Below, piece by piece: positions 42,101 to 48,100 of a stretch of DNA of 64,000 bases. How positions within the stretch are numbered: position 1 is the first letter of the stretch; each line of letters starts with the position of its first letter. Where the stretch lies: assembly GCF_044324785.1 (NCBI RefSeq), contig NZ_CP172128.1, one strand, 5' to 3'. Source of the DNA: Escherichia coli (GTDB lineage: Bacteria; Pseudomonadota; Gammaproteobacteria; Enterobacterales; Enterobacteriaceae). Made by a program: the position numbers.

Positions 42101-45100
42101 GGAGCAACTGACCGAATCTGGCATCAGGGTACATTGCCTGGCATTAGGTGGTGTTGATCTGACCAGTCCGGCAGGAAAAATGACAATGCAAGTGATTTCA
42201 GCGGTCGCTGAATTTGAACGAGATCTTTTACTTGAACGAACTTATTCAGGGATAGCAAGAGCACGGGATGCAGGAAAACGTTTTGGTCGCCCACCGGTAT
42301 TAAATGAAGAACAAAAACAGAAGGTACTCGAACACATTAAGTCTGGGGGAAGTATAAGTGCTATTGCCAGGGAATTCCGAACCACACGGCAAACAATTCT
42401 GAGAGTTAGAGCGAAACAGCAAACTGTTACTGTATAGAAAATAGTCTTAGCGTGGGATATTTTCCGTTTTCCAAGCGGACCCCAAGGAAGACTACATCGC
42501 GTTCATGCCGAAACCGAATGTAAGAACGGCATTGCATAATCTTGCAGTGGCGATCGAACATTACAATGAAAACCATCCGCACAGTGCGTTGGGTTATCGC
42601 TCTCCGCGAGAATATCGACGTCAGCGGGTAACATTAACTTAAGATACAACCCCTGTCTGGAAATAAGGGGGCAAGAACACATTGACACTGTAAATATGGC
42701 ATTGTATAAAACCCCGCGATAATAATGAGTTTCATTTGCATTACTCCCATTTGCTGGTCATCCACTCGCCTGTTTACAAGGATAGCGTTTAATGAAGAAG
42801 GTCCTTTGCGCGTTAGGCTTGATGTTCACCGCCGTCAGTTCCGCGCTGGCAACAACCTACCCCCTGACGATTGAAAACTGCGGCTATCAGGAGACCTTCA
42901 CCCGGCCGCCGGAGCGCGTGGTCGCGCTGGGGCAAAATACGGTCGAAATTCTGCTGCTGCTCGGGCTGCAAAAGCAGGTGGTCGCCAGCGCCTTCTGGCC
43001 GACCAGCGTTTTACCGCAGCTGGCTGAGCAAAACGCGAAGATTAAAACCTTGACGGTGGAAATTCCGAGCCTGGAATCGGTGCTGGCGCAAAATCCTGAT
43101 TTCGTTCCCGCCCAGTTGCCGCTGCTGCTGGGGCCGGAAAGCAAAGTCGCCAGGCGTGAAGATCTCGCCACCGTCGGCGTGAACAGCTACGTCTCACCGG
43201 GGGTGTGCGCCACCAAAAAGGCCACCGGCGATATGTACGGCAGCCGGCAAAAGCTGTGGGATATGACCTGGCTGTATCAGGAAATTAGCGATTTTTCCCG
43301 CATTTTCAACGTCGAAGATCGTGGTCAGGCGCTGATTGCCGATTTCAAAAAACGTGAAGCCGACCTGCGCCAGGAGTTTGGTAAAAGCAAAAAGGATCTC
43401 TCCTTCGTCTTCTGGTTCTCCAGCGCCTCACCTTCGGCCGATGCCTATGTCGGCGGCAAAAACAGCGCCTCCGGATTTATCGCCAGCGTGCTGGGCGGAC
43501 ATAATGCGATTACCTCCGAAACCGAGTGGCCCACGGTGAGCTGGGAGAGCATTATTGCCGCCAACCCGGATGTGATCGTGGTCGCCAGCCTGGATCGTAA
43601 CCGCTGGGCGCTGGATAAAGCCGAGGAGAAGATCAAATTCCTCAAAAGCGATCCCGCCGTCAGCCAGCTGGAGGCGGTGAAAAAAGGCCATATCGTGGTC
43701 ATGGACGGTCAGGCGATGAATCCGACCATTCGCACGCTTTACGGAGCGGAGCAGGTGGGCGAGCAGCTGAGAAAAATGGGGCTGAACTGATGAGCGTCGG
43801 CGCGATTGAGACGTGCCGCAGCATACTGCTCACCGGCTGGTGTGTACTGGCAGCGATCGTGCTGGCGCTGGTGATCGCTGTGGGCGTCAGCGTTGGCGAG
43901 CTGGCCATCCCGCTGCAGAATGTCTTTTATGCTATCAGCAACAGAACCGGCTTAACCGCTGAGCCGCTCAACCGTATCTATGAGAGCGTTATCTGGGATT
44001 TCCGCCTCAGCCGCGCGCTGGTCGCCGCCTGCTGCGGCGCCGGCCTCGCTATCTGCGGTGTCGTGCTGCAAAGCTTGCTGAAGAATGCCCTCGCCGAACC
44101 CTACGTCCTCGGCGTCTCCGCCGGGGCCTCCACCGGCGCGGTGTCGATCGTGGTGCTGGGCCTTGGCTCTGGCGCAATTTCCCTCTCGGCAGGCGCCTTT
44201 GCCGGGGCCTTCGCCGCCTTCGCCTTTGTCGCCTTGCTGACTAACGGCGCGCGCGGCGGCAATGAGCGTACGATTCTTGCGGGCGTCGCCGCCTCGCAGT
44301 TATTTAACGCCATCACGGCCTATACCATCAGCACCACCGCCAGCGCGCAGCAGGCGCGCGATGTGATGTTCTGGCTGCTGGGCAGCTTCAGCGGCGTCCG
44401 CTGGCCCGAATTCCAGTTGGTCATCGTGGTGGTGCTCGCGGGTCTGGCGGTCTGCCTGTGGTATGCCCGGGCGCTGGACGCGTTCACCTTCGGCGACGAT
44501 GCCGCCGCCTCGCTGGGGATTGCTGTGCCGCGCGTGCGCCTGATCCTCTTCACCACTGCGGCGCTGATCACCGCCACCATCGTCAGCATGGCCGGCTCAA
44601 TCGGCTTTGTTGGCCTGGTGGTGCCGCACGTGATGCGTTTCTTCTTTGGCCCGCTGCACCGAACGTTGCTGATCGCCAGCGCGCTGGCAGGGGCGATATT
44701 GATGGTACTGGCGGACATTGCGTCGCGCCTGCTGATTGCCCCGCAAAGTCTGCCCGTTGGGGTAGTAACCGCCCTGGTTGGGGTGCCTTTCTTTGCCGTG
44801 ATTATCTACCGCTCAAGGAATAAGTGATGAGTATTTGCGCTGAAAATATCACCTGGAAGGCAGGCAAAAAGGTCATCGTCAATAATGTCTCGCTGCGGGT
44901 GCCGCGCGGAGAAACGGTCGGACTGCTGGGGCCCAACGGCTGCGGCAAATCCTCGCTGCTGCGCGTTCTGGCGGGCCTGCGCCGCCCGGATGCAGGTCGC
45001 GTCACCCTCGACGGCCAGGATATCGCCCGGATGGCGAAAAAGCAGCTCGCCCGCCGCGTGGCTTGCGTCGAGCAACACGGCATGACCGAGGCCAATATGC

Positions 45101-48100
45101 GGGTGCGCGACGTCGTGCGCCTGGGACGCATTCCCCACCACTCTCCGTTCTCAAACTGGAGCGCTCAGGATGACGAAGCGATTGCCGCCGCGCTGCAGCG
45201 GGTAGCGATGCTGGAGAAAAGCGAACAGGGATGGTTAAGCCTCTCCGGCGGCGAGCGGCAGCGGGTGCATATCGCCCGCGCGCTGGCGCAGAGCCCGAGC
45301 GAAATCCTGCTGGATGAGCCGACCAACCATCTGGATATACACCATCAGATGCAGTTAATGCAGTTGATCAGCGAGCTGCCGGTAACCAGCATTGTGGCCA
45401 TTCACGATCTTAACCATGCCGCGATGTTCTGCGATTCGCTGATCGTGATGCAGCAGGGGCAGATCCTCGCCAGCGGGACGCCGGAGGAGATTTTGTCCGA
45501 AGCGCTGCTGTGGGACGTTTTCCGGGTGAAAACCAAAATCGAGATCTCCCCTTACCACGGCAAAAAGCACATTCATTTCATCGTTTAGGTTGGGCGGATA
45601 TGCCTCTTTTCTCCCTGCGCCCTGCGGCAACCCTCTGGCCTCCGGTGTTACTGGGAAGCCAGTTCGTTTTTAATATTGGCTTTTACGCGGTCGTACCTTT
45701 CCTCGCCCTCTTCCTGCGCGACGACATGCTGCTCTCAGGCGGACTTATCGGCCTGATCCTCGGGCTGCGTACCTTCTCCCAACAGGGGATGTTTATCCTC
45801 GGCGGGACGCTGGCCGACCGCTATGGCGCTAAGGCGATCATTCTCGCCGGCTGCGTCGTTCGCGTCGCCGGTTTTCTCCTGCTGGCGTGCGGGGCGTCGC
45901 TGTGGGCCATTATCCTTGGCGCCTGCCTGACCGGCGTCGGCGGCGCCCTGTTCTCCCCGTCGATAGAGGCCCTGCTGGCGCGGGCCGGTACCCACAGCCA
46001 GGCCAACGGGAAACGCAGCCGCGCCGAGTGGTTTGCGCTGTTTGCGGTATGCGGTGAACTGGGAGCGGTGATCGGCCCGGTGGCCGGAGGCGTGCTGAGC
46101 GGGATCGGCTTTCGACATATCGCCCTCGCCGGCGCGGGAATATTTCTTCTGGCGCTGGCGGTGCTCTTTTTCGGTCTGCCCGCCGACGGGCACACGACAA
46201 CAACGCGCAGACGAGTCCCATGGTGGACGCCTTTGCGCCAGCCGCGCTTTGTCGCGTTTATTCTCGCCTACAGCTCATGGCTGTTGAGCTACAACCAACT
46301 CTACCTCGCTCTGCCGGTGGAGATCCAACGTTCCGGCGGCCGCGAGCAGGATCTGGCGCCGCTCTTTATGCTGGCCTCGCTGTTGATTATCACCCTCCAG
46401 CTCCCTCTCGCCCGCTTCGCCCGGCGAATGGGCGCCGTGCGCATCCTGCCGGTGGGCTTTCTGCTGCTGTCGGCTTCCTTTGCCAGCGTGGCGTTATTCG
46501 CCGCCGCCCCACCCGCCGAAAGTTGGCTGCGGTTAATGCCGGCGGCTGGTTTTGTCACGCTGCTCACCCTCGGCCAGATGCTGTTAGTGCCCGCAGCCAA
46601 GGATCTGATCCCGCTGTTCGCCGAGGAGTCGACGCTGGGCGCCCACTACGGAGCGCTCGCCACCGCAGGAGGGTGCGCGGTGTTAGCCGGGAATTTACTG
46701 CTCGGTCATTTACTTGACCAGGCGCTCATTCCGTCGCCGCAGGCGGTTTATCCCTGGCTTCTGCTGGCGCTGTTTCCGCTGTGCAGCGCCGTCGCCCTGC
46801 GGGCGATCTGTCGCCCGCTGGCGGCAACATGACGCAGAGCGGGTAACAGCCCGCTCTGGAAGTGAACAGCTGGTATCCATATTTTCAGCTAATCCTTTAA
46901 CAAAGATCCTCAGCCCTGTTTAAACCCCGGCTTGCCGTTTTTGGCTCGCCATTCCTTCACTTCTTTTACGATACCTTCAGGACTGTCCTCACGGTCATCC
47001 CTTGGATAATAAATAAGATCAGAACCATCAGGGTGTTCAGCTAATCGACGAAATTCATCCACTAATTTATCGTCATCAGCCTCAGGGTGATGCTGCCAAC
47101 TTACTGATTTAGTATATGATGGTGTTTTTGAGGTGCTCCAGTGGCTTCTGTTTCTATCAGCTGTCCCTCCTGTTCAGCTACTGACGGGGTGGTGCGTAAC
47201 GGCAAAAGCACCGCCGGACATCAGCGCTATCTCTGCTCTCACTGCCGTAAAACATGGCAACTGCAGTTCACTTACACCGCTTCTCAACCCGGTACGCACC
47301 AGAAAATCATTGATATGGCCATGAATGGCGTTGGATGCCGGGCAACAGCCCGCATTATGGGCGTTGTCCTCAACACGATTTTACGTCACTTAAAAAACTC
47401 AGGCCGCAGTCGGTAACCTCGCGCATACAGCCGGGCAGTGACGTCATCGTCTGCGCGGAAATGGACGAACAGTGGGGCTATGTCGGGGCTAAATCGCGCC
47501 AGCGCTGGCTGTTTTACGCGTATGACAGGCTCCGGAAGACGGTTGTTGCGCACGTATTCGGTGAACGCACTATGGCGACGCTGGGGCGTCTTATGAGCCT
47601 GCTGTCACCCTTTGACGTGGTGATATGGATGACGGATGGCTGGCCGCTGTATGAATCCCGCCTGAAGGGAAAGCTGCACGTAATCAGCAAGCGATATACG
47701 CAGCGAATTGAGCGGCATAACCTGAATCTGAGGCAGCACCTGGCACGGCTGGGACGGAAGTCGCTGTCGTTCTCAAAATCGGTGGAGCTGCATGACAAAG
47801 TCATCGGGCATTATCTGAACATAAAACACTATCAATAAGTTGGAGTCATTACCCGAACTAAAGAGGGGATGGCTGTTGCCCGTTCAAAGGGAAAATTGAA
47901 AGGAAAACAGCCTAAATTATCTGAAAAACAACAAAAAGAACTATGCCGTATGCGTGATACTGGCCAGTACTCTATCAGCGATCTAGCGGAACTATTTACC
48001 GTCTCGCGTGCAACGGTTTATCGAACACTTTCACGAGGACAAAAATGACCGATTTAACTACACAGCAACATCTAGTAAAAATTGTCCATGATTATGCCTG

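Follow-up and report, generated by a model that had tools for sequence, protein, structure and literature searches.

The analysed stretch of DNA, 64,000 nucleotides of the Escherichia coli contig NZ_CP172128.1 (hereafter the window), carries at positions 42682–46832 the eitABCD operon of avian and extraintestinal E. coli virulence plasmids, a locus that has already been named and is widely catalogued. The operon is a self-contained cassette of four genes that stems from another, environmental and higher-GC member of the Enterobacterales, and E. coli virulence plasmids acquired it together with its own promoter, beside insertion-sequence (IS) debris. With a probability of about three in four, the operon would encode a Fur-repressed type II ATP-binding cassette (ABC) importer for a ferric chelate together with EitD, a DHA1-type pump of the major facilitator superfamily (MFS). 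This model builds on the gene identities, the boundaries and the anomalous G + C content of the cassette, the conservation of its promoter and operator, and the linkage of the ABC and MFS genes, all of which were established directly.

Identity and origin of the eit cassette

Over 4153 bp, the segment matches the type locus on pAPEC-O1-ColBM (NC_009837) with 100% identity and in the same gene order. The eitABCD operons of this plasmid and of pAPEC-O2-ColV are attributed to Johnson et al. (2006), as cited in PMC3251573 and PMC3852070; the cassette of the window shows no difference to them, and the flanks alone vary among plasmids, the neighbouring immunity gene being cut by an IS1 copy in the present case. 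In newer RefSeq records eitA, eitC, and eitD are used as gene labels, and the newest annotation reads “MFS transporter EitD.” The eit locus was detected in 218 of 5426 complete E. coli genomes, with every copy being at least 99% identical, and 224 of the 229 E. coli copies in complete genomes are plasmid-borne. Among the plasmids in PLSDB, 222 cover 80% or more of the query. Across its entire length, the window is 99.98% collinear with NZ_CP100531, an E. coli plasmid from poultry, except for one extra IS2 in the window, and the backbone of the poultry plasmid was typed as IncK2/Z by MOB-suite.

In the literature, eit is described as a putative ABC iron transport system on plasmids of avian pathogenic E. 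coli (APEC) and extraintestinal pathogenic E. coli (ExPEC), and as eitCBAD on Cronobacter plasmids of the pESA3 type. The eitCBAD genes of the pESA3/pCTU1-type plasmids are orthologous to those of E. coli (76% DNA identity for the EitABC genes and 71% amino-acid identity for EitD), and they share their promoter hexamers and Fur-like operator with E. coli eit. However, eitD is oriented divergently from a shared intergenic region in Cronobacter, whereas it is placed after eitC in E. coli.

An earlier, sequence-only reading of the window had described positions 42682–46832 as a GC-rich module of foreign origin, and the analyses confirm the first aspect of this description and support the second. 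The G + C content of the segment is 0.613 as opposed to 0.503 for the whole window, with sliding-window values of 0.56–0.68 inside the segment and of approximately 0.40–0.52 in the flanks. The 4151-bp block with the highest G + C content in the entire window begins at 42800 (0.617, compared to a mean of 0.495 and a standard deviation of 0.043 for blocks outside the region), and the G + C content at the third codon position of the four eit genes is 0.73–0.80. Chromosomal eit cassettes of Raoultella, Pantoea, Enterobacter, Citrobacter, Atlantibacter, and Serratia share 74–81% DNA identity with the plasmid cassette, and this homology extends from position 42678/42682 to approximately 46820, which is from the −35 hexamer of the promoter to just short of the eitD stop codon. 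Since the homology is confined to this interval, the span initially proposed for the module coincides with the true edges of the cassette.

Orthologs of EitA with 83–89% identity are encoded on chromosome-sized contigs of Serratia, Raoultella, Pantoea dispersa, Kluyvera, Lelliottia, Kosakonia, Atlantibacter, and others, and EitD orthologs with 76–83% identity are found in Enterobacter, Raoultella, Serratia, Citrobacter, and Atlantibacter. The chromosomal insertion site differs genus by genus: the cassette resides in the interval from fhlA to ygbA/mutS in Enterobacter, beside rpoD/mug in Atlantibacter, near ycjX/ycjF in Citrobacter, beside smpB in Serratia fonticola, and at other places in Raoultella and Pantoea. 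None of the sampled genomes contained a cassette close enough to the plasmid copy to represent its donor. Rhizobium megaplasmids carry eitABC-like genes without an MFS gene at approximately 69% DNA identity and with a similar G + C content; an alphaproteobacterial direct donor was rejected, because the copies on enterobacterial chromosomes are much closer (83–89% identity on the protein and 74–81% on the DNA level) and contain eitD and the same promoter.

The importer genes, EitD, and the promoter region

The segment contains four co-directional open reading frames (ORFs) on the plus strand, which encode a binding protein, a permease, an ATPase, and an MFS transporter in this order. Thus, the Pfam and NCBIfam assignments agree with the initial proposal of a binding-protein/permease/ATPase set, here of the FecCD/BtuC type, followed by an MFS transporter, the Pfam scores of EitA, EitB, and EitC all being above the gathering thresholds. 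The first gene, eitA (42792–43790), codes for a periplasmic substrate-binding protein of 332 amino acids with a Sec-type signal peptide (N-terminus MKKVLCALGLMFTAVSSALA followed by TT), which matches the family Peripla_BP_2 with 100.7 bits and, over its full length, the NCBIfam equivalog NF052484 with 696.1 bits (cut-off 640). Its AlphaFold2 model has a predicted local distance difference test (pLDDT) score of 93.6 and shows a class III binding-protein fold (Foldseek TM-score up to 0.89). It is followed by eitB (43790–44827), which codes for a FecCD/BtuC-type permease of 345 amino acids (Pfam FecCD, 289.1 bits) that scores under the cut-off of every named NCBIfam permease family. As eitB is the sole permease gene, a homodimer is expected. 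The ABC ATPase encoded by eitC (44827–45588) has 253 amino acids when translated from the ATG, with a GTG located one codon upstream, and matches ABC_tran with 124.3 bits and the equivalog NF052485 with 518.7 bits (cut-off 485).

Judged by the families of its components, EitABC is a type II ABC importer of the FecCD/BtuCD class. The same three components (Peripla_BP_2, FecCD, and ABC_tran) and the same binding-protein fold are found in FhuBCD, FepBCDG, FecBCDE, HmuTUV, and BtuCDF, but eit differs from these systems by its single permease gene, the lack of a linked TonB-dependent receptor, and the presence of an MFS gene in the operon. When EitA, EitB, and EitC were compared with the NCBIfam models of the Fhu, Fep, Fec, Btu, and haem importers, all matches remained under the respective cut-offs.

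The fourth gene, eitD (45600–46832), codes for a DHA1-like MFS transporter of 410 amino acids with 12 transmembrane segments (Pfam MFS_1, 107.6 bits). Its start is the ATG at 45600, located 11 nt past the eitC stop codon, as indicated by the N-termini of orthologs (e.g., MSPFSLRPATTLRPPVLLGSQ in Raoultella) and by clusters of 410-amino-acid proteins. EitD is 71–81% identical to the orthologs that extend to this ATG. The MFS ORF had previously been drawn from a GTG at 45510 and was too long, whereas the GTG at 45645 used in several RefSeq records (395 amino acids) was rejected because the N-termini of the orthologs reach the ATG at 45600. In MFS transporters motif A has the form GxLaDrxGrk and the antiporter motif C the form GxxxGPxxGG. 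EitD contains both (GTLADRYGAK and GAVIGPVAGG), and the core GxxxGPxxG of motif C is present in 8 of 8 relatives (seven orthologs and a Klebsiella paralog that is described below). With MFS_1 and motifs A and C, EitD has the features of DHA1-type MFS drug/H+ antiporters, and its nearest solved relative is NorA. The eitD gene is placed after eitC in six chromosomal lineages and lies divergently at the same intergenic region in Cronobacter; the fact that the linkage outlasts this rearrangement argues for a shared function with EitABC. Most probably EitD is a proton-coupled exporter tied to metal-chelate traffic, the direction of transport being predicted from motif C, from the nearest relatives (MdtH and NorA), and from the placement of the Klebsiella paralog in a metal-chelate importer cluster whose layout mirrors that of the staphylopine Cnt system.

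The operon has a strong sigma-70-like promoter (42683–42711, plus strand), which consists of the −35 hexamer TTGACA (42683–42688), a spacer of 17 nt, and the −10 hexamer TATAAA (42706–42711), and agrees with the consensus at 11 of 12 positions. Both hexamers and their spacing are conserved, with divergent spacer sequences, in Cronobacter, Serratia rubidaea, Raoultella, Pantoea, Enterobacter, Citrobacter, and Atlantibacter. The −10 hexamer is closely followed by the Fur-box-like operator GATAATAATGAGTTTCATTTGC (42718–42739, plus strand), which contains AATGA-N3-TCATT. The best 19-mer (42721–42739) matches the Fur consensus GATAATGATAATCATTATC at 14 of 19 positions and is tied for the best site in the 64-kb window; a score of 14 was reached in 7 of 1276 windows of 200 bp and in 2 of 300 shuffled versions of the 200 bp upstream. 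An alignment with six orthologous upstream regions revealed the near-invariant motif AATGAGTTTCATTTGCAT, which includes the palindrome at the centre of the 19-bp Fur consensus (AATGA-N3-TCATT). Sites matching at 14 or more of the 19 positions occur upstream of eitA in seven of nine enterobacterial orthologs, at −52 to −99 from the start codon (a score reached by 0–4 of 300 shuffles), and the Atlantibacter site scores 13/19. In S. fonticola the upstream sequence is non-homologous, yet it has a Fur-like site of its own; no Fur-like site was found upstream of the Rhizobium homolog. Hence, the near-consensus promoter and the Fur-box-like sequence that had been suggested for this region were both recovered and are shared with other genera. 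A literature search for Fur, binding, or expression data on eit retrieved nothing relevant. Taken by themselves, the in silico and comparative data provide good support for control of eit by Fur, which is predicted to bind at this operator.

Proposed function and alternative explanations

According to the proposed mechanism, Fur-Fe2+ would occupy the operator just downstream of the −10 hexamer when iron is plentiful and would thereby block the sigma-70 promoter, and the eit operon would be transcribed under iron limitation. EitA would be exported to the periplasm, where it would bind a ferric chelate arriving via an unlinked TonB-dependent receptor and hand it to a BtuCD-type (type II) importer in which EitB and EitC would each form a dimer. 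EitD, acting as a proton-coupled DHA1-type antiporter, would pump a chelator out of the cytoplasm; this cargo could be the ligand once freed of its iron, or else an endogenous, unlinked chelator. Both iron as the transported metal and the nature of the ligand are inferred.

A number of observations weigh against this model. The canonical T at the end of the −10 hexamer is missing, and the consensus scanner therefore skipped the promoter and listed an overlapping ATGGCA-16-GATAAT instead; the promoter was retained in view of the cross-genus conservation of its hexamers and spacing. The Fur match in E. coli eit extends to only 14 of the 19 positions, and the Raoultella site is degenerate (11/19). 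Furthermore, S. rubidaea possesses a chromosomal eitABC set with the conserved promoter and Fur-like site (loci L006/L007, 10001–12797) that lacks eitD, and the MFS transporter is therefore dispensable for the ABC part. The remaining points concern the transported compound. Mellata et al. observed no iron-uptake phenotype of the eit-bearing plasmid pChi7122-2 on chrome azurol S (CAS) agar, and none in medium limited for iron by dipyridyl, whether haem or haemoglobin was added or not (PMC3251573). In eight of nine contexts, eit has neither an outer-membrane receptor gene nor siderophore-synthesis genes linked to it. The solved structures closest to EitA have no assigned ligand, and those ranked next bind various ligands, namely haem, B12, molybdate, and siderophores. 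Finally, the second-best NCBIfam families of all three ABC components are the actinobacterial “putative F420-0 ABC transporter” set (TIGR03868/03869/03873), with all scores being below the cut-offs.

These last points are shared by the main rival explanation, which holds that the importer carries no ferric siderophore but haem, a corrinoid, another metal chelate, or a cofactor-like compound, and that “iron” is a family annotation only. It is in line with the missing iron phenotype, the absence of linked receptor or biosynthesis genes, the F420-0 families as best matches besides Eit itself, and the mixed structural neighbourhood of EitA. The EitA clade is narrow, comprising only 81 of the representatives of 50%-identity clusters at E ≤ 1e-30, and has no characterised member. 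The best Foldseek matches of the EitA model are the ligand-free structural-genomics binding proteins 4mlz, 4n01, and 5cr9; deduction of the ligand from the structure was therefore abandoned, as Foldseek and a sequence search of the PDB both failed to discriminate among candidates although the model is confident. On the other hand, the F420-0 scores are far below the cut-offs for all three components (174/392, 285/437, and 283/372), and eit is thus not a member of this set. Neither haem nor haemoglobin improved growth when the eit plasmid was present (PMC3251573), and the Fur-type operator conserved at the promoter in most enterobacterial orthologs indicates iron-responsive control. The only receptor found adjacent to the cassette in nine contexts is the ferrioxamine B receptor FoxA (1355 bits, cut-off 1300), which is encoded together with an AraC-type regulator directly downstream of eitABCD in Atlantibacter hermannii (locus L012, 10280–13499); being one case and too few to rely on, it is a weak hint at the ligand. 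Overall, a cargo other than a ferric siderophore is considered unlikely.

A different division of labour between the two transporters is conceivable, albeit equally doubtful. Eit would in this case be no conventional siderophore importer. In such a two-way shuttle, EitD would export a chelator made elsewhere in metabolism, or recycle an iron-free xenosiderophore, and EitABC would re-import the metal complex; the EitD family would then be a dedicated metallophore exporter that was recruited independently by two unrelated classes of ABC importer, the FecCD type and the Nik/Cnt type. The Klebsiella pneumoniae plasmid NZ_CP023723 (locus L005, 220–10519) encodes an MFS transporter 66% identical to EitD inside a Nik/Cnt-type ABC importer cluster, which comprises two ATPases, an SBP_5 binding protein, and a fused permease and has a Zur-like repressor of the Fur family nearby. 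A ShiF-like, aerobactin-associated MFS protein was rejected as the Klebsiella match to eitD, since the annotated context is the Nik/Cnt-type ABC cluster. CntE is the exporter of the staphylopine Cnt system. In this system (CntABCDF and CntE) and in the pLVPK-type Nik/Cnt-like cluster of Klebsiella, a metal-chelate ABC importer is co-encoded with an MFS pump, as in eit. Both differ from eit in that their importers are of the Opp/Nik type I with an SBP_5 binding protein, and Cnt systems include biosynthesis genes whereas eit contains none. As a separate observation, the NZ_CP023723 cluster may be an uncharacterised metallophore system of pLVPK-type virulence plasmids.

It is improbable that EitD is functionally unrelated to EitABC, for instance as a general drug-efflux pump, or that it is an importer parallel to the ABC system. 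The best NCBIfam match of EitD is MdtH, and many sources label it an “MDR family MFS transporter,” but its score of 119 bits is far below the cut-off of the MdtH equivalog NF008650 (469). The lack of eitD in S. rubidaea would fit independent functions; however, the linkage of eitD to the ABC genes persists through the divergent rearrangement in Cronobacter and holds in at least seven genera, and the close Klebsiella paralog lies inside another metal-chelate importer cluster. The conserved antiporter motif C speaks against an import function of EitD.

That the cassette is a hitch-hiking passenger without current function in E. coli, kept because successful ColV/ColBM-type plasmids harbour it in their conserved virulence region, would agree with its restriction to 218 of 5426 genomes in nearly identical copies (consistent with one recent capture spread by plasmids), with the surrounding IS elements, and with the lack of a detected phenotype (PMC3251573), but is very improbable given that all four reading frames are intact and of full length relative to the orthologs, that the native promoter is kept to the base pair, and that cassette and promoter are maintained at independent sites in many genera, which implies functional selection, in the donors at the least.

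Surroundings of the cassette and implications

The immediate surroundings of the cassette correspond to the initial description, which had placed it between a Tn3-type repeat with an IS2-like fragment and a colicin-immunity remnant cut by IS1. On the left, a miniature element of the Tn3 family (41632–42483; approximately 850 bp) contains tnpR but no tnpA. Its resolvase gene (41847–42437) is bracketed by 49-nt inverted repeats with 82% complementarity, 41632–41680 pairing with the end at 42446–42483. The latter, on the minus strand, is a 38-bp Tn3/Tn21-type terminal inverted repeat that forms the right end of the element, lies outside eit, and matches exactly at this single place in the window. 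An IS5075/IS4321-type element, which adds approximately 1.3 kb, interrupts the stretch matching the miniature element in some related plasmids. Between the repeat and the cassette lies the C-terminal remnant of an IS2-like (IS3-family) transposase (42484–42679, plus strand), which resembles the C-terminus of the intact IS2 OrfB at 49607–50512 and forms the left junction of the cassette; its terminal sequence (approximately 42655–42679) presumably resembles the right inverted repeat (IRR) of IS2. Upstream of the resolvase gene, an IS110-family transposase gene (40259–41269) is flanked by a 105-nt direct repeat (39942–40046 and 41249–41353; 88% identical, 1307 bp apart).

On the right, a GC-rich hairpin with a 10-bp stem and without a T-run (46835–46858, plus strand) begins 3 nt past the eitD stop codon and may act as transcript end or stabiliser; the fragment 46822–46880 containing it folds with −25.7 kcal/mol (z = −3.8), a stability reached by none of 200 shuffles. 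It is followed by the 3′ two-thirds of a bacteriocin-immunity gene (46911–47086, minus strand), which is truncated by the inverted repeat of an IS1 copy. This gene is intact (258 bp) in pAPEC-O2-211A-ColV, with the alignment identity ending at 47086. The IS1 copy (47085–47853, plus strand; insA/insB) has ORFs at 47141–47416 and 47335–47838, is named IS1A in the collinear record, and was delimited by self-match.

Further to the right, a gene of the endonuclease/exonuclease/phosphatase family (48308–49171, minus strand) with a signal peptide and a G + C content of approximately 0.39 is located between the IS1 and IS2 copies. Its counterpart in NZ_CP100531 is flanked by an IS1 copy on either side, an arrangement suggestive of a unit resembling a composite transposon. 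The IS2 copy (49196–50523) is absent from NZ_CP100531, and the alignment blocks flanking it overlap by 9 bp at the insertion point. Elsewhere in the window, the astA (EAST1) gene maps to approximately 20523–20636, and a second GC-rich stretch (about 0.57–0.58) at approximately 25607–35309, with coordinates mapped from NZ_CP100531, contains a raffinose-type sugar-utilisation cluster with genes for a carbohydrate porin, a kinase, a GH32 hydrolase, an MFS permease, an alpha-galactosidase, and a regulator.

The eitABCD genes are a routine virulence marker for avian pathogenic and extraintestinal E. coli, and for Cronobacter. In the literature searched, the substrate, the outer-membrane partner, the regulation, and the fitness contribution of Eit were nowhere demonstrated. 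To this picture the present analysis adds clearly defined cassette edges and a clearly defined start codon of eitD, cross-genus evidence that the promoter and the Fur-type operator belong to the cassette, and the association of EitD-like pumps with two different classes of metal-chelate importer. These additions leave the classification of the locus unchanged and make it easier to test what Eit transports.

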